In this document: piece after piece, positions 128 to 60,032 of the stretch | How the letters are laid out: every line of letters starts with the position of its first letter | Position numbering within the stretch: the first letter of the stretch is position 1 | Source of the DNA: a virus | Reading direction: 5' to 3' (one strand) | Length of the DNA stretch: 64,000 bases | Virus record (IMG/VR): IMGVR_UViG_3300020146_000001 | Made by a program: the position numbers and the translations under genes | The notes under the pieces: generated by a model | Seen by the model: only the letters and a program-made list of their open reading frames with translations | Database searches by the model: none | What the model was told of the DNA's origin: nothing

Positions 128-326
128 TCAAATTACCTAGAAAATCCTCACTTTTCCAGGTTCAGAACAATTCACTTCCACATAGAACGTCCACATACGA
201 TGCCGGGGAGGGGCGTTTTGCGCCTTCCCGCGCCCGGAAACGAAGCAGCCCGCCCATCCTGCGTGCAACAGGAATAGGGCGGGCCTTTGACCATCAACTT
301 CAACGGCCGTAGGAGGGCCACTGATT

Positions 327-806
327 ATGACGATCAATCGAAATCTAGCACGCCTCGTTTTCTCTTTTCTACTGATTGCCCTCGCATCAACCGCACACGC
401 CCAAACCGAGTACCCCGACGAACTCAAACAGAAGTTCGTCAAGCCTGAGACTGTCCAGCGTGAGGCGAGCGTGCCGAAGCTTAATGGGCGGCAGAAAGGT
501 AAACAGGAGCGCCGGGGCTTCTTCCGCCCTTACGGCCCGTCGGCGTGGGTCTCGTCGGCGGTCTATTGGGCGGGTTCGGGGATGGACATAGCATCCTCTG
601 ACCAGCCCAACTTCCGGGAGGGAAACTCGCTCTTTCGGAATGAGCGGGGCGGCACGGCGATGGGTAAGAACATCGCGGCCACGCTCGGCATCTACGGAGG
701 GACGCTCGTCGTGGAGAAGTTCAAGCCGGAGGTGGCGTTCCTCATCAGGATGGGGGTCGGGGTCGGGCGGATGATTGTCGCCGCGAGGAACTGGAAGAAG
801 TATTGA
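327..806 (+). CDS. Secreted hypothetical protein (accessory/moron candidate)
   Basis: 159-aa ORF with signal peptide LLIALASTAHA/QTE. It is on the opposite strand to the virion operon and att-proximal. No domain recognised. Confidence 0.6.
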   Translation: MTINRNLARLVFSFLLIALASTAHAQTEYPDELKQKFVKPETVQREASVPKLNGRQKGKQERRGFFRPYGPSAWVSSAVYWAGSGMDIASSDQPNFREGNSLFRNERGGTAMGKNIAATLGIYGGTLVVEKFKPEVAFLIRMGVGVGRMIVAARNWKKY

Positions 807-866
807 TCGAAGGGCGGGCCTCGCACCCGCTCTCTTTTAGTTTATAATGGGCGTGAGGTGAAGACG

Positions 867-989
867 ATGAGATTCTTTCAGGTACTCAGTGAAAAAGATG
901 CGTGGCCGATTTGGTTGAGCGGGCTGTTCTTAGGCGCAGCCATCGGTGTTATAGCAACCTCACTCGTCATCTGGCTTCTAGGGTCGTGA
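867..989 (+). CDS. Small single-TM membrane peptide (40 aa)
   Basis: Below the ORF-track cutoff. ATG 867 is preceded by GAGGTGA. Product is MRFFQVLSEKDAWPIWLSGLFLGAAIGVIATSLVIWLLGS, with TGA at 987-989. Confidence 0.35.
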   Translation: MRFFQVLSEKDAWPIWLSGLFLGAAIGVIATSLVIWLLGS

Positions 990-1078
990 TACAATCCCCC
1001 TCGCCTAGCGTTCCTTCTACTCTAGGTAACGAACAGGCGAGAGCGGCGTTGGGGGGAAACCTTGACGCCGCCTTTTAG

Positions 1079-1519
1079 TCAATAACAGTTCCTCGCGGCC
1101 CTGTATCCCGCCGCTTCAGCTTCCGCACGAGTCCTGAAATGAACCCTGTTATGCGGGGCTATGTCATCATAGTTCGGACATCCCGGCCAGTGGTAAATCA
1201 TGCTTCGGCGGTTTCCACGGATACGCTCATCTTGGGGCGTCCTCGCCTGAGACGTGCCCCGGCAGACCCGATAGTAAGCAGGCCGGTATCCTGCCTGTTG
1301 CGCCTCGCGTTGCGTCGTGTAGAAACCGCGTTTTGTTTTCCCGTACCACTGAGAACCGGGACACCAATAGATGTCGGAAGAGGTGTTGACCCAAACTCGC
1401 ACGTTGGGGTCGCCGTCTTGCCGTGAGGTTGCGGCATGAACAAGCAAGAGAGAACTTTGCGGCAGTGCGGACAGTATGAGCGTGAGAGCGATTGAAAAGG
1501 CTAGAATGAGCTTTCGCAT
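1079..1519 (-). CDS. Secreted protein with two tandem Ada-Zn-binding-like small Cys domains
   Basis: Signal peptide MRKLILAFSIALTLILSALP. Repeats are IYWCPGSQWY..FYTTQREAQQAGYRPAYYRVC and IYHWPGCPNY..HFRTRAEAEAAGYRAARNC. Paralogue of 59739-60032. Confidence 0.7.
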   Translation of the reverse strand: MRKLILAFSIALTLILSALPQSSLLLVHAATSRQDGDPNVRVWVNTSSDIYWCPGSQWYGKTKRGFYTTQREAQQAGYRPAYYRVCRGTSQARTPQDERIRGNRRSMIYHWPGCPNYDDIAPHNRVHFRTRAEAEAAGYRAARNCY

Positions 1520-1587
1520 GGGCTTCCTCCTGTAGGGGCTAGTGAGACGGCGGGCAATCTATATCAAATCGGGGAGGAAGGCAAGGG

Positions 1588-1923
1588 TCAGAGCTTTGCG
1601 AGTACCTTAGACCAGTTACCGAATCTCTTACACACAGAACTCAGGTGAATCTTTCCGTGTTCCTTGTATTCGGTTGATGTTGGCTTGTGTCTCAACATAC
1701 GTGCGACACGGCGAACGTCTCTCAAGATTTCCTCGTCACTTCTTATCGTCCTGTTGGTCTTGAGCCTCAAGACTTCGGAGCGGAAGACGTAGATAGTTCC
1801 GCCTATCTTGATTGAGCGTAATCGCCCTCTGACGACTAGGCTGTGAATGGCGGGCCGGGTAACACCGCGCAGTTCCCCGGCTTCGGTTTGGGTGATAAGG
1901 TCGTCGGCGTCAACTGAGCGCAT
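1588..1923 (-). CDS. Excisionase-family HTH (HTH_17/MerR-like) fused to one homing-endonuclease-associated repeat (HEAR)
   Basis: The N-terminus [39 protein letters not shown] fits the Xis-type HTH pattern. The C-terminus [28 protein letters not shown] fits the HEAR pattern. Located next to the att-like site. Confidence 0.65.
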
Positions 1924-2019
1924 GGACTCATAATAATGATTTTTGAGGGGGCGTGCTATACTCTGCGACCGTCAAGCAGGGTTTACAGTCTCCCGAAACC
2001 TTTACTCAGGAGTCCAGCC

Positions 2020-2184
2020 ATGCCCGATACTCTCACGGCGCAGGAGCGCGAAGTCGTAGAAGCCGCCAAACGATTTGTTAAAGCCGTCCACGAATCGAAC
2101 GGAGATTCACAGTACAGCGAGAAGGTAGTCACGGCGGAAGATGAGTTAATTGAGGCCGTGGACAGGCTGGAAGGTCAGTCGTAG
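2020..2184 (+). CDS. Small acidic hypothetical protein (54 aa)
   Basis: Internal ATG of ORF 1936-2184, preceded by AGGAG (2008-2012). Convergent with 2175-2495 and overlaps its end. Confidence 0.4.
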   Translation: MPDTLTAQEREVVEAAKRFVKAVHESNGDSQYSEKVVTAEDELIEAVDRLEGQS

Positions 2185-31685: not shown

Positions 31686-31831
31686 TTCACACCTCCCACT
31701 ATTACCGCCCCCACGATGCAGGCGGCGGCGAGCCATTCAAATCTAATCTTGCCGTTAGCCGTGACATTCAGCCCGGCCAACACAAAGAAAACGAAAGCGA
31801 GTATCCATAAGATGAGTGATGCAGAAATCAT
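31682..31831 (-). CDS. Small two-TM membrane protein (49 aa)
   Basis: Below the track cutoff. ATGA overlap with the stop of the 1738-aa gene and with the start of the Tat-signal ORF. Product is MISASLILWILAFVFFVLAGLNVTANGKIRFEWLAAACIVGAVIVGGVK. Confidence 0.45.
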   Translation of the reverse strand: MISASLILWILAFVFFVLAGLNVTANGKIRFEWLAAACIVGAVIVGGVK

Positions 31832-34800
31832 TCCTTCGTACTCCTTTGTGGTTTGGCCGGGCGCGACGCGGAAGGTCGCGCAGTACCTCTGGACGTTCCT
31901 CTGTTCTCGCGCTGCTCGTAAGACGTAGCCCCTTCACCCAGGAATGAAGCGATGCCGATTCCCAACCCAGCACCCAAGCCGGATTGTTTGTAGGCTTCAA
32001 TCGCATCGTTCCACACCATCGGCGTCAGCTTCTTAAATGGGTAACTCGTGCGGAGGCGCTCAAAGCCCGACGTTCCCGGTTTCCCGGCCATGTAAACAGG
32101 CTCTCCCGTCACGTCAGTTCCCCTACCTTCTTTCCGCCGACTCAAGAACGTGTCGTGGACGATTGACGCTATCGGGGACTCCTTGCCCCTCACGTAAGTA
32201 CCAAATATTTCCATCGGCTCACGATTACTCTCTCCGCGAATGGCTTTCTCAAGATTCAACGCCAATCGAATGTGGCTCTGGAATCCGGCAGAGAAATCAA
32301 AACAGGTGTCGCCCCAACACGCCTTGCCAAACTTCTTATCTTCGGGCGAAGTTGCAACCTCGGCCCCGTTCATCTTCGCCAATGCCAACTGGGCAGCCAC
32401 CAGAGATGAGAAGGCAAACAAGGTCTTGAACGCTTCCTTACGCGCTGGACCCGAAAGCCCGCCCATCCTCTCGGGCAAAACCATCCTCGCAGGGGTGATA
32501 GTTAGTGAGCGCACACGGGCCGCCCAAAACCGCGGACTAAATATAGTGTTATTTAGAACAGGCGCAGCGCCTTCCAACTGGCGGGGCAATTTCCCTCTCC
32601 CGGTGAAATCATTTATCAAGTCCACGCCCTGCTGGAATACCGCACGATCTTCTGCTTTCTCGGGGTCAAGCCCCGCCTTTCGGGCCTTGTTCAGATAGTC
32701 CTTGAACCACCCGAACTTCACCACGTCGCCCATAGCCGTTTGTGCTCTTTGGGACATTGCGATGCCGGGAATCTTGTCAGCCAATGAGGTTTGGAATGAC
32801 TCTTCACGAGCGCCCAGAGTTTCACCCCTCAAGCCTTCCGCCGTGAGTCCCAGCTTGAACCTCTTGGCATACTTGAAATCGGCGTCGCCTTCAATCTCAG
32901 AAACAATCCGCTCGAACTTATCGGCCTTCAACGCCTGTATTTGCTTGCCGAACCCTTTAGCCCAAATCAGGGGATGCCGCGCAAGCGCCATCTTGCCCTG
33001 CCTGAGCCCCCACGACAGGTCTAAGGCTGTCTCAGCCGCGCGAGCCAAACCAAGTACGTCAACCACCTTCCGGCCGAACGTCCTACCGGGCGTGGCAGAG
33101 AGCTCGTCAAACTTCTTGGCTAATTGCTGCCTTGCTTTCCTGGCATCCGTCTGAGCGTCCAACCTCTGATTGACGAGTCTCCGCATGTCTTCGGGGCGCA
33201 GCGGGCCAACATTCTCACGCCTGACACTTCTCTCCCGCTGCTCCTGAAGTAAGTCCTTCCTGTTCTGGTCGTAAAGTTTGTAGGCTTCACGGTAAATGGC
33301 CCGCATTTTTGGCCTGATTTCCTCGCCAAATTCCTTCACCATATCCGCCGTGAAACTCGCCGCCGAAACGCCTTTCTGTGCAAGCTTGCTCGCCCCGATA
33401 ATCGCGTAGTCCGCAATATCCAAAGGTATGATTGACGCGCCAGCTTGGCTACCTTTGACGCCACCTTGCTTACGTGCTTCCAACCTCGCCCGTGCTTCAC
33501 TCTCGGCCTTCTGCAATCGCTCCTGAAGGGTTTCTAATTTGGGCCGGGGCGCACGAGTAGTCGCACGCATTTGAAGCTCGGCAATCTGTTTTTCGAGTGT
33601 AGATATTTTCCCTTCCGCTTCACGGACTTTAGCGGCAGCTTCAGTTACCGAGTTACTTTCTTGGACCGTCAACTCCCTCCCGGCTTTCCTGCTGGCGGCA
33701 ATCTTCACCCCCTCCGGGGAGAGCCGAGCAAGCACGGACGCGGCTTGCGTCACTTGGCCTGCTTGGGTGAGCTTCTGTGATAAGACGTTTGCTAACTCAG
33801 CCGCGCGTTTCGTCTCACCGCTCTCCTCAAAACGTCGCATTAACTCAAAGCCCGCTACGGCATCATCCTTCGACACTTCTTCGCCGCCATGAAGTTTCGT
33901 CAAGAGGTCAGCGGCGACTCTATCTACGCCTTGCTGCCGAATGCTTTCCTGGGCACGGCCGTAGGCAGCCTTATCAGTGACGACCTCGTAAGTTAAATCT
34001 TCACCCTTTTGGAGTCCGACACGTTCGAGTGATTGGGGGAGGCTACGGGCCGCGCCTTTCGATTCTGACGCAGCTCTTTCAACAGTTCCAGTGCGAGGTA
34101 GGCCAACATCGGCGGGCCGAGCAGGAACAGCAGAAACAGGAACTTCATTTGTCTCTCCTTTCGGTGCTTCCTCTGACCGTACACCCGAAACAGCAGGCGA
34201 CTCTTCTTTGAAGCCGGATTTGAATTGACCTTTCCTCCCTGTGGCCGTGTTTCTGGCGCGGCGGTTCTGGCGCTCGTAGTGGGGGGTAGCGGGGGCCGCG
34301 CTTAGTCCCCTCGGCGCGTCCTTCAAGCCAGACGTGTCCTTGAACAAGTGGCGCAGCATGAACTCCGCGTCCTCACGATTGGAGAATCTACCTTTGGCTC
34401 GTTCAGCCGCCATCCCGGTTATCTTCGCCGTGTCGAAACCTTTCCCTCTCGCAATCTCAGCCGCATACCTCATCTGCGCGTAAGCACGTTGCTGCTGACG
34501 GTTCATCTTGGCCGGGTCACGTTCGGCCCCGATGTCCGTCAGCGGCTTCGCCAATGCCCGAGCGAGTGATTCCTCGGAATCCGAATGGGCGGCGATGGTT
34601 TCGAGGTCGTCGCGGAAGGTCTTATAGTCATCCACCGAGACGGGGCTTTCCTGCTCCAGCCTATTCAGTTGCTGCTCAGTCAGCCCTCTAGTCATTTGCT
34701 CCATTTCAGAGCGCGCACGACGAACCACAGAGTCGGGGGCGTCAGGGCTAAGTATCTTCCTCTCAAGTTCTAAGTAGCGATTACCCTTCTCCCTGCCGAG

Positions 34801-37044
34801 CAGGCCAACCGCCACTTGACGCTGCTCACTTTCCAACCTCTGCCGCGAAGCCTCAAGGTCTGGAATTGACATCTCGTAGAGCGGTTTCTCTACTACGGGC
34901 GGGGCGGCACTCACCTCATTGAGCGCGGAACTAATCTCTTCGGTGGTGGCGTCGGCGACTCTCGCCTCTCTCGACGCCCTCAGAAAAGCCTCACGGTCAC
35001 CGGACTGTGCGGCCACTTTCAGCCCCTCAAGCGCGGCGGCTTTAGGCGTCAACGCACTCGGCGATTCTGCGGTTGGCCTCCGTTCTATCTCACCCCGACG
35101 ACTCATCCGATTTTTGTCTGGCACCTGTTGAATCTCGGGGTAGTCAAGCAGTAAACGACCTTCGGGGCGGGCTAATGGCTCGCTGGCGACCTCAGAGACG
35201 GGCATGTCGGCGGCGGATTTAGGCCGTGCGGGGCGTTCGAGCCCTAAAGGCGTCCTGACATCCCCGTCAAGCGGTCTGCGGCGTCCTACGGGCATTGCGG
35301 CACCCAAAGCGGCGTCCAGAACAAGGTCCGTGGGGTCGGTCTTTCCGGCAAGAGCAGATTGAGCAACATTGGTTGCTCCCGACGCCCCGCGGGTCAGGGC
35401 TTGGCGAGCCAAAGGACTCATCTTGTTGGTCAGACGAGAGACGGCAGAACCAGCGGCAACCATCGGGATTGTAGGCACGGCCTGACGTGTGGCCTCCATC
35501 GGCCCGCGGTGCAGGTTTTCGGCAAAGACAACAGCAGGGAACGCGGGGCCACTCCAACCCTTTGTTGCGATGGTTCCGGCAATCTCCGCACCACCTCTGG
35601 CTAGTTTGTTGGCTACGGTAGTCTCTTCGGGAATCGCACGCTGGGAGGCGTCCACTAAGGCTTGGGCCTCGCGATCTTCTGCGGCGAGGCGTTCCAGTTC
35701 GGGATGATTCTGACCCAACCCCAATCGAGCCCCAGCGGCCTTGGGAAGCATTACGACGTTGTGCAGAAGTTGACCCGCACCAGCCGCCGTCTCATCCACT
35801 CCGGTTCCTATCGCCGCTGCGATGCCCCTTTCCGCCCGGTCTTTCTTAAACGCCTCCGCTCTTTCCCTCTCAAACTTCTCGTCGGCTTCGTCAATCTGCC
35901 GCGTGGCTTCCCTGACGGCATCCACCGAGCCGGTTTGTAGGTAAGTATTCAGCGCGTGAATGAATCTCTGATTGGGCGCGACGTTGAAGACGTAAGTCCC
36001 GGTCTTATCGTCATATCCAACTTCGCCACGCTGGAAGGCTTCGGCTAAATTAAACTTGGCTTGTCCCAAAGGCTCGCCAGCTTCGGCCTTGAACCGTCTC
36101 CCCGCTTCGACATATGCAGGCCCGCCCATCGCTTCCAAGACAGCATCATCAATCTGCTCGACGGACGGATAACTCGACTTAGGAGAGCGCACGCGGACTG
36201 TGACACCCTTACCTTGCTCCCTGCCGTAGCCTTTGGGCGGCTCGGGCAAATCCGGCCTCGCGCGGTCGTGGAAATACTTTGCAATGCGCTGGCCCAGGTC
36301 CAAAGTTAGAGGTTCGGGTGTGGCGTCAGGATAGAGTTGCGGCTGAGTACCATCAGTTGTAGGCTGAATTGGTGCGTCAAAGTCTACGTCTTCGCGCACT
36401 GTGGAAGTCACGCGGGGCGTCCTCAGTACGGGCTGCGTGGCTGGCTGTAGGGCAGGTTGCGGAGCTCTGGCAACTCTTTCGACTGCGGCGTTGAGTCCGA
36501 GCGGCCCATCGGCAGGAGAAGCAGGCGAGTCCAGCCCGTCAGCCTTAGCCATCAACTCGGCAACCCTATCCTGACTAAATGGCTGCCCGGACAAGCGAAC
36601 AGGGTAGTAAAGGTCTTTGACGGTACTCGGGTCCACCACTTGGCCGTTTTCCCACCATTCGTAGTGAATGTGCGGGCCGTGCGCGTTCCCGGTTCTGCCG
36701 ACTGTAGCGATAGGCTGACCGGGATTTATGGTCTGCCCGACTTGAACAAGGTTCTGCGTATTGTGCATCATGCGGGAGCGGGCCTTGCGCCCGTCCGGCA
36801 TGTCAAACTCTAATTCAACCCAGTTGCCGCCACGCTTCGCACCCGTACCCACATTAGTTACTCTCGCGGGCACGTTGAACCCGTAGGGCGTCTTGTCTTC
36901 AATCTGAAGGTCGTAGCCCTTATGCCTACGCGCGCCGCCGTCACGGGGAGCGCCCCACTGGGAAATGACGCGGTTGATCGAACCGTCCCCGGACAGCCCG
37001 TCAGCCTTCTGCATCAACTCTCTTATGCGCTTCTCGTCCTGCAT
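31828..37044 (-). CDS. Giant polyvalent-type protein with an N-terminal M23 (LytM) peptidase domain. Candidate ejected/internal virion protein.
   Basis: 1738 aa. M23 motifs are RRHKGYDL (HxxxD) and GNAHGPHIHYEW (HxH). The remainder is long, helical and charged with no motif I recognise. Confidence 0.8.
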   Translation of the reverse strand: MQDEKRIRELMQKADGLSGDGSINRVISQWGAPRDGGARRHKGYDLQIEDKTPYGFNVPARVTNVGTGAKRGGNWVELEFDMPDGRKARSRMMHNTQNLVQVGQTINPGQPIATVGRTGNAHGPHIHYEWWENGQVVDPSTVKDLYYPVRLSGQPFSQDRVAELMAKADGLDSPASPADGPLGLNAAVERVARAPQPALQPATQPVLRTPRVTSTVREDVDFDAPIQPTTDGTQPQLYPDATPEPLTLDLGQRIAKYFHDRARPDLPEPPKGYGREQGKGVTVRVRSPKSSYPSVEQIDDAVLEAMGGPAYVEAGRRFKAEAGEPLGQAKFNLAEAFQRGEVGYDDKTGTYVFNVAPNQRFIHALNTYLQTGSVDAVREATRQIDEADEKFERERAEAFKKDRAERGIAAAIGTGVDETAAGAGQLLHNVVMLPKAAGARLGLGQNHPELERLAAEDREAQALVDASQRAIPEETTVANKLARGGAEIAGTIATKGWSGPAFPAVVFAENLHRGPMEATRQAVPTIPMVAAGSAVSRLTNKMSPLARQALTRGASGATNVAQSALAGKTDPTDLVLDAALGAAMPVGRRRPLDGDVRTPLGLERPARPKSAADMPVSEVASEPLARPEGRLLLDYPEIQQVPDKNRMSRRGEIERRPTAESPSALTPKAAALEGLKVAAQSGDREAFLRASREARVADATTEEISSALNEVSAAPPVVEKPLYEMSIPDLEASRQRLESEQRQVAVGLLGREKGNRYLELERKILSPDAPDSVVRRARSEMEQMTRGLTEQQLNRLEQESPVSVDDYKTFRDDLETIAAHSDSEESLARALAKPLTDIGAERDPAKMNRQQQRAYAQMRYAAEIARGKGFDTAKITGMAAERAKGRFSNREDAEFMLRHLFKDTSGLKDAPRGLSAAPATPHYERQNRRARNTATGRKGQFKSGFKEESPAVSGVRSEEAPKGETNEVPVSAVPARPADVGLPRTGTVERAASESKGAARSLPQSLERVGLQKGEDLTYEVVTDKAAYGRAQESIRQQGVDRVAADLLTKLHGGEEVSKDDAVAGFELMRRFEESGETKRAAELANVLSQKLTQAGQVTQAASVLARLSPEGVKIAASRKAGRELTVQESNSVTEAAAKVREAEGKISTLEKQIAELQMRATTRAPRPKLETLQERLQKAESEARARLEARKQGGVKGSQAGASIIPLDIADYAIIGASKLAQKGVSAASFTADMVKEFGEEIRPKMRAIYREAYKLYDQNRKDLLQEQRERSVRRENVGPLRPEDMRRLVNQRLDAQTDARKARQQLAKKFDELSATPGRTFGRKVVDVLGLARAAETALDLSWGLRQGKMALARHPLIWAKGFGKQIQALKADKFERIVSEIEGDADFKYAKRFKLGLTAEGLRGETLGAREESFQTSLADKIPGIAMSQRAQTAMGDVVKFGWFKDYLNKARKAGLDPEKAEDRAVFQQGVDLINDFTGRGKLPRQLEGAAPVLNNTIFSPRFWAARVRSLTITPARMVLPERMGGLSGPARKEAFKTLFAFSSLVAAQLALAKMNGAEVATSPEDKKFGKACWGDTCFDFSAGFQSHIRLALNLEKAIRGESNREPMEIFGTYVRGKESPIASIVHDTFLSRRKEGRGTDVTGEPVYMAGKPGTSGFERLRTSYPFKKLTPMVWNDAIEAYKQSGLGAGLGIGIASFLGEGATSYEQRENRGTSRGTARPSASRPAKPQRSTKE

Positions 37045-55145: not shown

Positions 55146-55433
55146 TCATCGGCTGTTCCATATTTCGTGTAATCTCTTCTTCTGCTCATCAGTCCACGGG
55201 CGCTTCGCCGTGAACTCAACTCCTAACAGGGCCGCGATCATCTTCCGCACGGGTACGGGCTTGTGGCCGATGTGCCAGTTGACGCAGTAGTCGCACTTGT
55301 AGGGCCATAGGCTGTCGCCGGAAATCTGGTAAATGAAGTGGCATGTAAGGAGCGCGCGTACCGGGTCGCCGTGGTTCTGTTTTCCAAAGCATGAACTCGC
55401 ATAGTTAATCGCCTTCTCGTGCTTGGCACTCAT
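55146..55433 (-). CDS. Hypothetical Cys/His-containing protein (95 aa)
   Basis: Overlaps the upstream gene by 4 nt. Confidence 0.5.
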   Translation of the reverse strand: MSAKHEKAINYASSCFGKQNHGDPVRALLTCHFIYQISGDSLWPYKCDYCVNWHIGHKPVPVRKMIAALLGVEFTAKRPWTDEQKKRLHEIWNSR

Positions 55434-56125
55434 CGCTCGGCCTGATAATCAACCGCAGCCTTAATCAGCGTCGGAATCGAATCGTCTAAAAGTTTCTTCT
55501 CGCCCCGAGATATAAACGTCTTCACCGCGTCCACGATGTAAGACAGGGCTTCCAGTGGCTGCTCATCCTGCAAGCACACCTGCGCCGTCGTGTCGTCTAC
55601 CTGCGCGGAGGTAACGGGGTCGTCAACGAAGTATCGGCGGGCCTTGTCCAGGTGCCCACGGGCCTCTGCCGTGCGCCCCAGTCGGCACAGCACGACGGCG
55701 ATGTTGTTTTCGAGGTTCCCGGCGTATTGCAGATCGCCCGCCTCTTCCGCGTGGAACCTCGCCGCCTCGTACTCAATCAGCGCGCGGTCAAGGTGGTCAC
55801 TTCGAACGTCCGCCGACTCCTCGTAAGTAATGCCAAGCCCGTTGTGGAATCTGGCGCGGAGGATGTGAAAGTTGCAGAGCTGCGCCAAGGGGTAAATATC
55901 GGCGTGGATTCTTAAAGCCTCCCGGTAGTTCTTCGCGCCGCGCTCTATTGAGGCGAGCAACGTCTTGTGCGCGAATATCTGGTCAACGTCTTCGAGGGTG
56001 AGAAGCTCCCGCGAGACAATGGCGCGCGCCTCATCGAAGCGGCCCGCCTTCCGCTCGTCTTCCGCCAATCGGTAAGCGTCAGTCAGCGTAAATTCGGCTT
56101 CTTTTATGCTCGCCAATTTTTCCAT
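55430..56125 (-). CDS. All-helical TPR-like repeat protein
   Basis: About 231 aa from ATG 56125 (ORF track start GTG 56137). Repeated A..A/Y-type helical hairpins, e.g. GRFDEARAIVSREL, KNYREALRIHADIY, LGRTAEARGHLDKARRYF. Confidence 0.6.
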   Translation of the reverse strand: MEKLASIKEAEFTLTDAYRLAEDERKAGRFDEARAIVSRELLTLEDVDQIFAHKTLLASIERGAKNYREALRIHADIYPLAQLCNFHILRARFHNGLGITYEESADVRSDHLDRALIEYEAARFHAEEAGDLQYAGNLENNIAVVLCRLGRTAEARGHLDKARRYFVDDPVTSAQVDDTTAQVCLQDEQPLEALSYIVDAVKTFISRGEKKLLDDSIPTLIKAAVDYQAER

Positions 56126-56130
56126 AACAG

Positions 56131-56159
56131 TTGACACTCCACTCGCTTTACCAACTTAT
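56131..56159 (+). promoter_or_regulatory. Candidate promoter for the small exported-peptide gene
   Basis: Perfect TTGACA at 56131-56136. Only a weak -10 is present (ACTTAT 56154-56159, 17-nt spacer). Confidence 0.3.
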
Positions 56160-56173
56160 CCGGGGAGTCTCCC

Positions 56174-56344
56174 ATGAAACTTAAAGCCCTGCTCTTGGCC
56201 TTCTGCTTGACCGTTTCCACTTCCGCATACGCGGGCAACATCGAAACCAACGGCGTCACGTCTCAGGAAGCACCTGTGACCACATTAGACCCCGTGACCG
56301 ACGCCCTTCTGAGCATCGTTCAGTCCGTACTCGCGCTCTTCTAG
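56174..56344 (+). CDS. Exported small pre-peptide (56 aa)
   Basis: Below the track cutoff. GGGGAG (56162-56167) precedes the ATG at 56174. Product is MKLKALLLAFCLTVSTSAYA/GNIETNGVTSQEAPVTTLDPVTDALLSIVQSVLALF. The stop TAG shares a CTAG with the stop of 56341-56880. Confidence 0.45.
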   Translation: MKLKALLLAFCLTVSTSAYAGNIETNGVTSQEAPVTTLDPVTDALLSIVQSVLALF

Positions 56345-56880
56345 CCCACCTTCCGCTCGCGCATGATTGGTGCGCCCGGATACTCCGCGGCCCCGATCTG
56401 CGCGTCAACCATTATCGAAAGCTCGTGCGCGAGGGTCATTACGTTCAATAACTTCTGCTCGAAATCTCTCAACTCGCCCGGCGTCAAATCTTTCAAGTCT
56501 CTGCCCTTCAACTGATAGTTCGCGTCCGACGCACTTTTTAAGAGGAAGTTCAATTTGTGGATGGCGTCGCCCTCGTCCGGCACGTCGCCGCGAAGCTGTT
56601 GCAGGAAACTCAGCGGGTAGCGGGCCATTTCCAGGGCGGCCGAGACTTCCCCGCCCTCCCGCTGCTCTATTTCGAACAACTCGCGCACAAGCTCGCAGAG
56701 GACGTATAAGTGACTGCGCCGCCCCGAGCCGTACAGCCCGACCTCTTCCGTCATCTGGTAGGCCATCGAAAGGGCTTTGTTAGTGACGCGCGCCAGAATC
56801 TTTATCCTGTGCAGGTCAACCCCGTCGCGCTCCGCGAAAGCCCTGCGCGTGACCAGATTTCCTTTGTTCTCGACTTGCAT
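56341..56880 (-). CDS. Hypothetical protein (179 aa)
   Basis: Co-oriented early-operon ORF. Confidence 0.5.
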   Translation of the reverse strand: MQVENKGNLVTRRAFAERDGVDLHRIKILARVTNKALSMAYQMTEEVGLYGSGRRSHLYVLCELVRELFEIEQREGGEVSAALEMARYPLSFLQQLRGDVPDEGDAIHKLNFLLKSASDANYQLKGRDLKDLTPGELRDFEQKLLNVMTLAHELSIMVDAQIGAAEYPGAPIMRERKVG

Positions 56881-57310: not shown

Positions 57311-57559
57311 TCAGGCGACAAGAGCCTCAACAGCGTCTTTCGCTTCTTTCAAGCTGAGGCCGGTAAGGTTCCGGCATAGCCTGATAGCGTCAATCTTTTG
57401 GCCGGCCTGAATCAGTAGCCTTGCTTCTGCTTGCCAGCCGTGTTTAAGAACAGCGTCCACGATGATTTTGGGGTGGCTCTTGGCAATTTCCAGAACGAGT
57501 TTGCGGAAGTCAGTATTAGAGTCGGTGATGATGCTGATTGCTTGTGCGTAGTAGTTCAT
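57311..57559 (-). CDS. Protein with a ribosomal L7/L12 C-terminal-domain-like segment
   Basis: 82 aa. GQKIDAIRLCRNLTGLSLKEAKDAVEAL parallels the L7/L12 sequence K(I/V)AVIKAVR..TGLGLKEAKDLVE. Confidence 0.55.
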   Translation of the reverse strand: MNYYAQAISIITDSNTDFRKLVLEIAKSHPKIIVDAVLKHGWQAEARLLIQAGQKIDAIRLCRNLTGLSLKEAKDAVEALVA

Positions 57560-58168: not shown

Positions 58169-58381
58169 TCAACCTGTCGTTGCCTGCTCAAGTTTGGCGG
58201 GCACTTTTAAGCCGTGCTTCTTGAATAAATCCGGTAGCCCGAGCGCCACCGCTTCATCGGCAATCTCAGCCCTAGTGATACCGGTTTTCTTTACAAGTGT
58301 GTTGATAGCCTCTTCCGAGGATGGCCGTGGCCGAAATGGAAGAGGTTTGGTTGCGACGCCATATTTCGGTGGTCTCGCCAT
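58169..58381 (-). CDS. Cro-like ribbon-helix-helix DNA-binding protein (first gene of the leftward operon)
   Basis: 70 aa. The beta-strand KPLPFRPRP followed by two helices (SEEAINTLVKKTG, TRAEIADEAVALG) gives an RHH pattern. The ATG lies only ~10 nt downstream of the -10, so the mRNA is near leaderless. Confidence 0.55.
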   Translation of the reverse strand: MARPPKYGVATKPLPFRPRPSSEEAINTLVKKTGITRAEIADEAVALGLPDLFKKHGLKVPAKLEQATTG

Positions 58382-58384
58382 AAC

Positions 58385-58464
58385 GGTATACCGTATACAG
58401 CATACCGTATACCCGTGTCAAGGGCAAAATTTTAGGGGTGGACATAGATGCCTATTCCGTATAC
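58385..58464. promoter_or_regulatory. Operator cluster (left): three copies of CCGTATAC
   Basis: CCGTATAC occurs at 58391-58398, 58405-58412 and 58457-58464. The 12-mer TATACCGTATAC is at 58387-58398. The cluster lies between the divergent cro-like and repressor-like genes. Confidence 0.55.
58392..58421 (-). promoter_or_regulatory. Leftward early promoter
   Basis: On the minus strand, TTGACA (58421-58416) and TATACG (58397-58392, 18-nt spacer; GTATAC at 17). It overlaps the operator repeats. Confidence 0.5.
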
Positions 58465-58900
58465 AGTATCCGCCATGCCAGCGGACGGGAATCGCCAAAG
58501 AAACCAATTTCAATTCAAGCTGTCCCCCGAAGAGTTTAAGAGGTGGGACAAGGTAGTTAATGACGCGAAACTGCGGGTGAAAAAAGCGCAGATTGCCGCC
58601 ATGCAAAAAGGTGAATCTGTTGAAGAGATTTCTTTATCCGACATCAACAGGGCACTAGTCGGCATGGCGGAAGCGAAAAAAGGCATAGTCACCGAGCCTG
58701 AGCGTCAATACTTTTTAGGTCTAGCAAACGGCGATTATGGTTCCGATGATAACGGAGGAAAAGAATCTCCCCCAGACAATCCCGGCAACAAAGGAGGTCT
58801 TGCAGTATTTAGACCTACCAACAGCGGGCGGTCAGCGCCAGTTGTCAACGCGAGAACCGAGGGTGAAAAATCAAAGAAGGGAGAGCGCAAAAAGAAGTGA
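58448..58900 (+). CDS. Repressor-side ribbon-helix-helix-like protein with a disordered basic tail
   Basis: 150 aa. NQFQFKLSPEEFKRWDKVVNDAKL gives a beta-strand plus helix (RHH pattern). AGGGGTGGA RBS. Ends in KSKKGERKKK. Confidence 0.55.
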   Translation: MPIPYTVSAMPADGNRQRNQFQFKLSPEEFKRWDKVVNDAKLRVKKAQIAAMQKGESVEEISLSDINRALVGMAEAKKGIVTEPERQYFLGLANGDYGSDDNGGKESPPDNPGNKGGLAVFRPTNSGRSAPVVNARTEGEKSKKGERKKK

Positions 58901-59328
58901 GTGCCTTTGTGTCTGCCGTTTACACGCCTCGTATCCAAAGGTGGCCCACTTGCGCTCTGGTAACGCTACCCGTGTCTGCCGGTAATCCGTTCGCAACCGA
59001 CAGTTACATCGAAGGCCAGATAGACCCTTACGAATACCTTATCAAGCATCCCTCAAACACGTTCTTTGTTCGTGTGACGGGGGATTCGATGATTGACTTG
59101 GGTATTCAGCCGGGGGATTTACTTGTCGTGGATCGCTCTATTGAAGCTCAAAACGGAAAGGTAGTTATTGCGATTCTTGACGGCGAGCTGACTGTGAAAA
59201 AGTTTGAGCTTGCCGGGTCTCACCTCCGACTTGTCCCAGCTAACAGCAATTATCAGCCAATCGTAGTCAAGCCCAACCAGGACTTTGAGGTATGGGGCGT
59301 GGTAACTTTTGTGATTCATAGAGTATAG
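58897..59328 (+). CDS. S24 (LexA/UmuD/CI C-terminal) self-cleaving serine peptidase domain protein
   Basis: Cleavage-site-like VSAG/NP, catalytic Ser in VTGDSMIDLGI and Lys in ELTVKKF. The GTG start forms a GTGA overlap with the upstream stop. Only ~28 aa precede the cleavage site (UmuD-like). Confidence 0.8.
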   Translation: MSAFVSAVYTPRIQRWPTCALVTLPVSAGNPFATDSYIEGQIDPYEYLIKHPSNTFFVRVTGDSMIDLGIQPGDLLVVDRSIEAQNGKVVIAILDGELTVKKFELAGSHLRLVPANSNYQPIVVKPNQDFEVWGVVTFVIHRV

Positions 59329-59500: not shown

Positions 59501-59746
59501 ATGCTGAATGATTTAATGCGTGCCTTCGGCGCTTCGCTGATAATTTTCCCGCTTTGTGTCATCGTCATGGTCCTGACGTACCCCAAAAGCGTGCGGATTT
59601 GGTGGGTCTGGTTGGTGGCTTACGGCATCGCCTACGTAGCCGGATTCTTTACCGCACTTGTCATACCGATGATAGCGACTTTTTTATTCTGCATATTTCT
59701 ACGCGGGCAAGAAAGTGTGGACTACAAAGGAGACCCTCATGCGTAA
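59501..59746 (+). CDS. Three-TM membrane protein (superinfection-exclusion/moron candidate)
   Basis: 81 aa with an AAAGGAG RBS. It follows an AT-richer spacer downstream of the immunity genes. Confidence 0.55.
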   Translation: MLNDLMRAFGASLIIFPLCVIVMVLTYPKSVRIWWVWLVAYGIAYVAGFFTALVIPMIATFLFCIFLRGQESVDYKGDPHA

Positions 59747-60032
59747 GCTACTCCCACTCCTACTACTCTTCACCCTCGCCTGCTCCAACAACGACACCCC
59801 GGCAAACAAGGCGACGGCCTATGTCGCCAAATCAGGACTCGCCTCGCAAAGCGGCACAGGCCCGACCAGCACGCCCCGCGACGAACGTATCAGAGGCAAC
59901 CGCCGGAGCATGATTTATCACTGGCCCGGATGTCCGAATTATGACGACATCGGCCCGAGCAACAGAGTCTATTTCAAAACTCGTGCCGAGGCTGAAGCCG
60001 CTGGCTATCGAGCCGCAAGAAACTGCGGATAG
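59739..60032 (+). CDS. Lipoprotein with one Ada-Zn-binding-like small Cys domain
   Basis: Start at MRKLLPLLLLFTLAC (lipobox LAC) with an AAGGAG RBS. The C-terminal 53 aa are a paralogue of the C-terminus of 1079-1519. Confidence 0.7.
   Translation: MRKLLPLLLLFTLACSNNDTPANKATAYVAKSGLASQSGTGPTSTPRDERIRGNRRSMIYHWPGCPNYDDIGPSNRVYFKTRAEAEAAGYRAARNCG

Follow-up and report, generated by a model that had tools for sequence, protein, structure and literature searches.

A putative phage-borne offshoot of a Blastocatellia family of exported peptides and TPR sensors

Within the 64,000-nucleotide viral sequence IMGVR_UViG_3300020146_000001 (the window, by which we mean that whole stretch), a gene for a cytoplasmic tetratricopeptide repeat (TPR) protein and a small, divergently oriented gene for an exported pre-peptide lie side by side near the immunity switch. 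We propose, with a probability of about 0.45, that this pair is a stripped-down, phage-borne copy of a peptide-signal/TPR-sensor module of Blastocatellia, comprising an exported peptide and a putative receptor that would act through a partner on the early or lysogeny programme. The proposal builds on the co-conservation of the two genes, their homology to a cellular family, the modular behaviour of the TPR core, purifying selection on the peptide and the presence of an export signal. A link between ligand and sensor fits these loci better than one between a regulator and its target, or than a moron gene, because the exported peptide follows the TPR core even where the output attached to that core cannot bind DNA.

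Peptide quorum sensing with intracellular TPR receptors, together with phage communication of the arbitrium type, has been treated as a speciality of the Firmicutes, and Gram-negative signals are usually taken to be small molecules. The locus described here connects a prophage, probably of soil Acidobacteria, to a family of several hundred peptide/TPR-sensor pairs.

Results

A conserved exported-peptide gene opposite a TPR gene

The pre-peptide gene (56174-56344, plus strand; gene P0018 in the protein database) comprises 56 codons plus a stop, and the Shine-Dalgarno (SD) sequence GGGGAG (56162-56167) stands 6 nt ahead of its ATG. Its product consists of a predicted signal peptide, MKLKALLLAFCLTVSTSAYA, followed by a 36-aa mature part, GNIETNGVTSQEAPVTTLDPVTDALLSIVQSVLALF, which starts GNIETNG and ends SIVQSVLALF. 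Read from the sequence, the former (56174-56233, plus strand) is a Sec-type signal with a basic n-region, a 13-residue h-region, Ala at -3 and -1 and a predicted signal peptidase I site between AYA and G. The mature N-terminus carries a single unit, GNIETNG (56234-56254, plus strand), which follows the phage consensus G-x-[IM]-E-x-[PND]-[GPL], and the C-terminus carries an amphipathic, hydrophobic tail, DPVTDALLSIVQSVLALF (56288-56341, plus strand), which has a terminal Phe and is aligned by a hidden Markov model (HMM) to the tail ..sllqsvLsLf of the cellular peptides described below. The ratio of nonsynonymous to synonymous substitution rates (dN/dS) is 0.23-0.28 for the window peptide against its relatives in L001 and L005, and 0.16-0.45 across the family; the pre-peptide protein is under purifying selection, and the plus-strand open reading frame (ORF) is a real gene and not a chance ORF. 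A word-indexed protein search with the 56-aa peptide returned the self-match only, and the family was reached through synteny. Other readings of the small gene were rejected, namely a lipoprotein (Cys11 is not conserved, and residue -1 is Phe or Leu), a PEP-CTERM-type sorting signal (by eye, there is no basic C-terminal cluster) and a cationic antimicrobial peptide (the mature peptides have net charges of -4 to -7).

On the minus strand, the ORF of the TPR protein extends over 55430-56137, and an alignment with 12 homologs places the conserved start at the ATG at 56125, so that the gene (55430-56125, minus strand) encodes a cytoplasmic protein of 231 aa, a putative sensor core that stands alone and lacks an output domain. 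Pfam assigns it to TPR_12 (E=9.1e-12; 45.4 bits, cut-off 30.1), and its AlphaFold2 model is an 11-helix superhelix (predicted local distance difference test score, pLDDT, 93.2; predicted template modelling score, pTM, 0.87). Neither sequence nor model gave a signal peptide or membrane segment, and neither a Pfam scan nor the model gave a helix-turn-helix (HTH).

A first-pass annotation of the window, made from the sequence alone, had described a helical TPR protein of about this length with no visible HTH, a 56-codon ORF with its SD opposite it, a Sec signal peptide cut before GN with a hydrophobic tail downstream, and a position in the early operon about 2 kb from the switch, all of which our analysis bears out. 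Its placement of a promoter-like TTGACA inside the TPR gene needs qualification. With the conserved ATG, the start codons of the two genes are 48 bp apart, and the divergent intergenic region between them (56126-56173, 48 bp) contains both the SD and the TTGACA. The coordinates of this hexamer (56131-56136) are correct, and it falls inside the TPR gene only if a GTG start is used; the conserved ATG therefore makes it intergenic. As a -35 element it fits poorly, the best -10 being ACTTAT and the implied transcript start lying inside the SD, and a promoter role is doubtful.

Database homologs of the TPR protein number 17, all of them metagenomic, with the close ones at 48-57% identity; among the phage elements considered below, TPR identity is only ~36-58%. 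The short form has no relatives in GTDB species genomes, and direct scans of IMG/VR with the TPR profile found nothing; one 52.5-kb IMG/VR uncultivated viral genome (UViG) was found through the profile of the adjacent 179-aa protein and was also the sole match of a scan with alignment A7, which represents the core plus HTH_8. The best structural matches in Foldseek were kinesin light chain (KLC) and the TPR domains of LGN/Pins (template modelling score, TM, 0.75-0.80), whose groove accommodates extended peptides. RapF, RapH and the Rap of phage phi3T with its pheromone (8rsv, E 1.2e-3) ranked lower (E 5e-4 to 1.2e-3, TM 0.55-0.64), and the viral structural matches were generic. A profile search of PDB sequences returned nothing specific and no protein of the RRNPP systems (Rgg/SHP, Rap/Phr, NprR/NprX, PlcR/PapR, PrgX), and scans of Pfam and NCBIfam returned generic TPR families only. 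The predicted fold is thus compatible with peptide binding and does not place the protein in the RRNPP families.

A trio of early genes in nine phage elements

In 9/9 distinct phage elements, the window included, a ~180-aa gene, a 52-71-codon gene on the opposite strand and a ~230-240-aa TPR gene follow one another in this order. The elements were gathered from four contigs with TPR homologs, from two more distant loci that a metagenome scan had supplied, from four further loci to which homologs of the 179-aa protein led, and from the IMG/VR UViG; contigs of 52-68 kb hold most of the nine, one of which is an IMG/VR viral genome. Co-conservation of the pair in related phages, the check that the first-pass annotation had called for, is therefore strict, and the conserved phage unit is not the pair by itself but a trio that includes the ~180-aa protein. 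In the related phages the gap between peptide and TPR genes is 27-82 bp, an SD of GGAG type is present in all, and the small gene was independently predicted by gene callers in most of the contigs. The peptides of all nine elements have a basic n-region and a hydrophobic core, and eight of the nine have a small residue at -1 and then Gly (the L091 peptide has Gln-Gly after the site). Each carries one unit, such as GNIETNG, GDMESPG, GDIETPP, GTMEMPG, GVMETDG or GDMEMPL, followed by an acidic linker rich in Pro, Thr and Ser and then by the hydrophobic tail.

In every case the early operon carries the trio close to the immunity switch, 0-5 genes after a cro-like gene in the relatives. Since it adjoins three different kinds of immunity module (S24, ImmA/HTH and HTH_3), it behaves as a cassette. 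In the window the early operon is a tight minus-strand gene array (52.1-58.4 kb) that begins at the divergent switch (58382-58447), ~2.1 kb from the pre-peptide/TPR pair. Between the 179-aa gene (56341-56880, minus strand), which stands upstream of the TPR gene in the operon, and the TPR gene itself, the minus strand is non-coding for 215 nt, and this gap is exactly occupied by the plus-strand ORF. The pre-peptide gene is flanked by minus-strand genes on both sides; it is thus antisense to the early operon and shares a strand with the genes of the repressor side. Its stop overlaps that of the 179-aa gene by 4 nt; across the elements the 3' ends of these two genes overlap by 4 to 31 nt in 8/9, and in L002 they are 3 nt apart.

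The third cassette member, the helical 179-aa protein, has 28 homologs at 49-66% identity and no match in Pfam, PHROG, NCBIfam or PADLOC; its AlphaFold2 model is of moderate quality (pLDDT 71) and shows a long C-terminal helical hairpin. In one relative the gene of its homolog directly follows cro, a position that in lambda is held by cII. Descent from CII was considered and rejected: the top Foldseek hit, 186 CII (6vpe), is insignificant (E 0.9, TM 0.33), and hhalign against 186 CII gave a probability of 0.8%. With no significant similarity to 186 CII, the term 'cII-like' describes the position of this protein only.

This layout also invites an explanation that treats the plus-strand ORF as incidental. 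The 179-aa and TPR genes would then be damped by convergent transcription or by a transcript antisense to them, much as oop lies opposite lambda cII, or the ORF would be an unrelated moron beside a generic TPR protein; the antisense position within the early operon and the 3' overlap with the 179-aa gene speak for it. In lambda, cII lies shortly downstream of cro and is met at its 3' end by the opposite-strand oop RNA, and here, too, an opposite-strand unit meets the 3' end of a gene that can follow cro. The analogy is positional only: the opposite-strand unit of the window encodes a conserved exported peptide, and the 179-aa protein has no detectable similarity to CII. An incidental ORF is very improbable given that selection acts on the protein, that all relatives retain signal peptide, unit, tail and SD, and that the same peptide family is paired with the TPR core in cellular loci outside any phage operon. 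The first-pass annotation had kept an exported moron product as its alternative, which gives way to the finding that the peptide is, by the cellular HMM, a homologous family member. An antisense effect may nevertheless be added to the role that we propose for the peptide as the signal of a sensor module.

Directly downstream of the TPR gene, a 95-aa gene (55146-55433, minus strand) overlaps the TPR stop codon and encodes the motif C..YC.NWHIGH, which is also found in a 56-aa gene after the TPR gene in L092 (4446-4616) and in PHROGs 15216 and 14788, both of unknown function. The cassette may include this gene as a loosely linked fourth member.

The TPR core as input domain of a cellular family

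The distant metagenome match L007, 644 aa long, combines TPRs with a Fis-type HTH_8 and, C-terminally, a receiver (REC) domain. Upstream of it lies a divergent 89-aa gene whose product has a signal peptide ending in ..AAFA before GETNTPPC.., a second unit, GETNAPP, and a tail, ..DVAINLLQSVLSLF, that is nearly identical to the ..SIVQSVLALF of the window. The long form has 552 relatives in GTDB, where one genome per species was scanned, and the best 80 of these 552 come essentially all from metagenome-assembled genomes (MAGs) of Blastocatellia, Pyrinomonadaceae or other Acidobacteriota, often several per MAG; the isolate SMAG_U12510 alone contributes six loci. We assembled 81 cellular loci, 75 of them with enough upstream DNA to judge pairing, and a divergent peptide gene is present in 73 of the 75, intact in 72 (75-91 codons, ~150 bp away) and 5'-truncated in one. 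A PrsW-type membrane protease takes the place of the peptide gene in two loci (L067 and L083; upstream of 4001). Otherwise the flanking genes vary from one cellular pair to another, and no histidine kinase or transporter is conserved among them.

The GC content of the window (54.9%) equals the mean of the cellular loci (55.1%), which makes a host of Blastocatellia type likely. The prophage would accordingly belong to a soil diderm of the Acidobacteriota, class Blastocatellia, in line with the first-pass annotation, which had read lipobox and Tat signals elsewhere in the element as hints of a host unlike those of known systems.

A profile of the phage TPR proteins matches one and the same segment, residues ~108-327, in 50/50 full-length regulators of ~640 aa (E 1e-36 to 1e-47), and leaves their other TPR repeats unmatched; phage-clade and cellular cores are only ~30-35% identical. 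An exhaustive profile search of 1.84 billion representatives yielded 571 clusters at E<=1e-10, and Pfam scans of selected hits revealed the core fused to HTH_8 alone (272-290 aa), to HTH_8 in proteins of ~520 aa, to HTH_8 and REC (~640 aa), to a sigma54 AAA+ domain with HTH_8 (766 aa), to GGDEF and EAL (889 aa), and to HisKA, HATPase and REC (1549 aa). One locus was looked up for each of four of these architectures. The sigma54 form (L093) faces a divergent 71-aa peptide with signal peptide and hydrophobic tail; the GGDEF-EAL form (L095) faces a divergent 84-aa peptide with five tandem GDLGTD units and a tail; and the form with core and HTH_8 (L097) has a 69-aa peptide, ..ALC before GDIEQPP.., only 53 bp away, as in the phage arrangement. 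Opposite the kinase form (L096) stands a divergent gene for a 637-aa secreted S8 subtilase (213-2126, minus strand), whose C-terminus carries the tandem sequences DGTMLN, DGVMSTTG and GVISTTG, similar to the units of the small peptides, and which may be a protease fused to its own signal precursor.

Because an exported partner is kept beside the GGDEF-EAL form, the kinase form and the output-less phage protein, none of which binds DNA, these loci are not merely regulators placed beside a target promoter; the pairing is tied to the TPR core, and the core, fused as it is to many different signalling outputs, behaves as an input domain. The phage protein stops at the end of this core and has none of the C-terminal outputs of the cellular family, which makes it an output-less offshoot of that family. 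Its missing HTH is thereby placed in context, as cellular and short relatives carry a Fis-type HTH_8 C-terminal to the same core.

A different flow of information could be imagined from the same architectures. The most abundant of them has a C-terminal REC, and an unlinked membrane kinase, of the kind used in Agr- and Com-like systems, might sense the peptide in the periplasm and signal through REC, with the TPR region as a scaffold and the phage TPR protein as an unrelated adaptor; re-import of the peptide into a diderm would then be unnecessary. We regard this as improbable, since no kinase is conserved beside the pairs, since pairs exist whose regulators have no REC at all (core plus HTH_8, the ~520-aa forms, sigma54, GGDEF-EAL and the phage form), and since the TPR core is common to all architectures checked, with an exported partner gene beside each.

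The cellular loci offer some further observations. PrsW-family intramembrane metalloproteases are encoded by 5/61 genes flanking cellular pairs and are candidate processing enzymes or an alternative partner. The ~150-bp intergenic regions of the cellular loci (L007-L081; for example L007 5460-5616) share conserved blocks, one just before the regulator ATG (..GCGCAA..TTATCA..AGAAAGG..CCTCAC) and another near the peptide gene (TCTTGAAAC-GAACAAGA-CGAAGC), and they also hold inverted repeats, CGAAGC...GCTTCG; such elements may serve as operators or leader structures. When divergence was compared domain by domain, no sensor region of the regulators stood out as evolving clearly faster. In L007 (1660-4032, minus strand), two tyrosine-integrase genes in tandem directly adjoin the cellular pair, which also stands upstream of an OEP/HlyD efflux pair, so at least some cellular pairs may be carried by integrative elements.

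Phage and cellular peptides form one family

An HMM built from 71 cellular peptides only was tried on the six-frame translations of the window and five phage loci, 1387 ORFs of 30-200 aa in all, and the six phage peptide ORFs were the top 6 (E 1.4e-7 to 5.9e-5, with the next at 0.27); the window peptide scored E 3e-6. Cellular precursors consist of a signal peptide, one to five tandem units of G-x-x-x-[ST]-P type and a hydrophobic tail that usually ends in Phe. A 7-mer repeat with at least 5/7 identical positions occurs in 48/71 cellular precursors against 4.6% of shuffles, units are on average 5.9/7 identical within a precursor versus 2.3/7 between precursors, and paralogs of one MAG carry different units. 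The window precursor has a single unit, where tandem copies (two or more) mark the cellular family. Mature parts are acidic and almost devoid of Lys and Arg, with a mean net charge of -7 in cells and mostly -4 to -7 in phages.

The C-terminal tail suggests a function in the envelope as a further alternative. The peptide could be an envelope effector or a secretion reporter whose tail, resembling that of an outer-membrane protein in its final Phe, engages a periplasmic PDZ protease or the beta-barrel assembly machinery (BAM), or it could serve superinfection exclusion, with the TPR protein as its chaperone and co-regulator or as a merely co-regulated neighbour; type III secretion TPR chaperones double as co-activators and would be the model. 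The tail is the best-conserved mature segment (34% versus 16% for the unit), 56/71 cellular peptides (79%) end in Phe, the acidic mature part has no basic residues, PrsW-type proteases occur in the flanks and replace the peptide gene in L067 and L083, and tests for covariation of peptide and TPR were negative, all of which speaks for such a role. Precursor-specific tandem units and the repeats fused to a subtilase are hard to explain for an effector driven by its tail, however; a single envelope function would hardly call for several paralogous pairs per MAG with a sensor apiece; export by Sec leaves the peptide little opportunity to encounter a chaperone in the cytoplasm; and PADLOC gave no defence or exclusion match. 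An envelope role is thus unlikely, although it deserves to be taken seriously. Identity as a defence system was separately rejected: PADLOC recognised none of the three cassette products and nothing among their neighbours.

The phage units raise the question of whom the phage addresses. GDMESPG and GDIETPP fall within the range of host units (GIMETPP, GDMETPT, GQIETPP), units are fairly conserved among phages, hosts have many paralogous pairs, and the phage protein is exactly the sensor core without its output. Each of these would suit an interference with host signalling, in which the TPR core is a decoy or dominant-negative protein that soaks up host peptides or poisons host regulators, and the phage peptide mimics host signals and carries no message from phage to phage. 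A pure eavesdropper or decoy would not need a peptide gene of its own, which is kept in 9/9 elements, the phage and cellular cores have diverged to the low identity given above, and the conserved 179-aa partner suggests an output internal to the phage. We therefore consider interference unlikely and favour a phage module with its own signal.

Discussion

Our analysis suggests how a module reduced to a 231-aa sensor core, a 36-aa mature peptide and a 179-aa partner might work. The pre-peptide would be exported by Sec and, judging from its sequence, cleaved after AYA, and the acidic mature peptide would probably be trimmed further. Its active part would be either the unit GNIETNG or the hydrophobic tail; the tandem, precursor-specific units of the cellular peptides and the subtilase with C-terminal units point to the unit as the active part and to its proteolytic release. 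The key step would be the arrival of the peptide or a fragment at the cytoplasmic TPR protein, with putative binding in the concave groove; as the host is a diderm, this step requires re-uptake of the peptide across the envelope. Having neither a DNA-binding nor an enzymatic output, the phage TPR protein would act through protein-protein contact, and synteny suggests the adjacent 179-aa early protein as the partner through which it would bias the early programme and the choice between lysis and lysogeny. The orientation of the peptide gene, opposite to the early operon and shared with the repressor genes, could allow its expression in lysogens, and the peptide made there might, speculatively, report the abundance of lysogens to incoming phages. 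Peptide processing, re-uptake, binding, the partner and the phenotype are thus all predictions of this scheme.

Several results weigh against it. The link to lysis-lysogeny, plausible as it is, derives from gene position, and the proposed partner has no recognisable DNA-binding domain and no significant similarity to 186 CII. A scan of the window for consensus promoters and terminators found no plus-strand site for the pre-peptide gene, which is why the TTGACA was not adopted as its promoter. From phage to phage the unit changes rather little (G-x-[IM]-E), which does not suggest phage-specific 'languages'. No co-adaptation of peptide and sensor emerged either: mirror-tree comparison of the peptide parts with the TPR core and with HTH plus REC gave weak correlation, the automatic parsing of cleavage sites being imperfect; the score of a position-specific scoring matrix of phage units was unrelated to phage-TPR similarity in 50 cellular pairs (rho 0.08, p 0.29); and partial correlations in peptide-TPR covariation tests were <=0.14. 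The commonest cellular architecture includes a C-terminal REC, so phosphorylation could deliver the signal in place of the peptide. Finally, we know of no precedent for cytoplasmic sensing of a secreted peptide in a diderm, and literature searches brought up no account of this TPR family of Blastocatellia, of RRNPP-like systems in Acidobacteria or of quorum sensing by peptides in diderms.

The system resembles RRNPP and arbitrium signalling and stands apart from both in homology, architecture and host range. As in RRNPP systems, a cytoplasmic TPR-type receptor, here putative, lies beside the gene of an exported pro-peptide, and genomes hold many paralogous pairs. The first-pass annotation had treated divergent gene order as a departure from known systems, a point we do not uphold: Rgg/SHP pairs are divergent in gene order too, and SHP has a hydrophobic C-terminal segment like that of the peptide here. 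Rap, for its part, has no DNA-binding domain and acts by protein-protein contact, as we propose for the phage TPR protein. The annotation's comparison with Rap, NprR, PlcR and AimR holds at the level of general layout and not as family membership, because the TPR protein is related to them by generic TPR similarity only, with structural matches to Rap weaker than those to LGN and KLC. Further differences are the diderm Acidobacteriota host in place of Firmicutes, outputs that are very diverse and C-terminal to the sensor (HTH_8, REC, sigma54 AAA+, GGDEF-EAL, kinase), and peptides that are longer (52-91 aa) and acidic, with classical Sec signals, internal units and a Phe-ended tail. RRNPP systems have been described for Firmicutes, and the RRNPP_detector survey frames them so (PMC10075063).

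Arbitrium (AimR-AimP-AimX) of Bacillus phages likewise lies in the early region of temperate phages by the immunity switch and combines a TPR protein with a Sec-exported pre-peptide, so that a role in lysis-lysogeny is plausible here as well. AimR has ~380 aa and an N-terminal HTH, and aimP lies downstream on the same strand and encodes a C-terminal hexapeptide. In the window, by contrast, the TPR protein has 231 aa and no HTH, the peptide gene lies upstream of the TPR gene, diverges from it and runs antisense to the operon, a conserved 179-aa protein stands in place of an AimX-like output, and the gene downstream of the TPR gene encodes the 95-aa protein; the two systems are not homologous. 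Rap proteins have an N-terminal helical bundle and a same-strand phr gene and act on host Spo0F and ComA; they are also larger, with ~365-380 residues in the matched PDB chains, and their hosts are not diderms, as the host here is likely to be. Closer in spirit is the Rap-Phr of the Bacillus phages phi3T and phi105, a TPR-only receptor with a propeptide, sometimes with duplicated units, that comes from a large host family (PMC11343458), just as the phage pair here would derive from the cellular one. A propeptide of these phage Rap-Phr systems can hold its active peptide in tandem copies (PMC11343458), and the cellular precursors described here contain tandem units.

A bolder generalization can be put forward more tentatively than the proposal for the pair, and we think it possible but less likely than not. 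Blastocatellia might use a large, previously unrecognised family of Sec-exported peptide signals that are read by cytoplasmic TPR sensors controlling transcription, sigma54-dependent expression, c-di-GMP and phosphorelays, the first RRNPP-like communication outside monoderm Firmicutes; phages would have captured the core and a one-unit peptide as an independent arbitrium-like system, with the 180-aa protein setting lysis-lysogeny. If the peptide is the ligand, peptide signalling extends to a dominant and poorly understood soil phylum, peptide-based phage decision-making has a second, independent origin, the three proteins of the cassette form a compact test system, and a new key is at hand for finding communication genes in metagenomes. 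If it is not, a large and strictly paired gene family still calls for a functional explanation.

Other features of the window

The immunity switch (58169-59328, both strands) comprises a 70-aa gene, the first of the early operon and ribbon-helix-helix-like (58169-58381, minus strand), a divergent 150-aa gene with no recognised domain on the repressor side (58448-58900, plus strand), and a gene for a 143-aa S24/UmuD-like peptidase with no HTH (58897-59328, plus strand; PHROG 811, E 2e-40). The last two overlap by 4 nt and may be a split repressor of LexA/CI type; L089 is similarly arranged, with a 121-aa gene and then a 135-aa S24 gene.

A search of INPHARED gave no similar phage DNA except a 72-bp methyltransferase match, and scans of the window for tRNAs and Rfam families found none. 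Most large structural ORFs have no Pfam match, and the phage lineage is therefore very divergent; the only recognisable part of a 1738-aa protein (31828-37044, minus strand) is an M23 peptidase domain at its N-terminus (E 5e-15). A predicted lipoprotein (59715-60032, plus strand) combines a lipobox, LTLAC, with a C-terminal motif, YHWPGC...AGYRAARNC, that resembles, by eye, the Ada zinc-binding domain of a 146-aa protein (1079-1519, minus strand; Pfam PF02805, E 1e-7); such a domain, if exported, would be odd. In the early operon, an 82-aa protein (57311-57559, minus strand) matches the C-terminal domain of ribosomal protein L7/L12 above the cut-off (Pfam PF00542, E 4.5e-7), and a comparable 84-aa gene is present in the related phage L091/L092 (4646-4900); a phage-encoded mimic of the L12 C-terminal domain is unusual.

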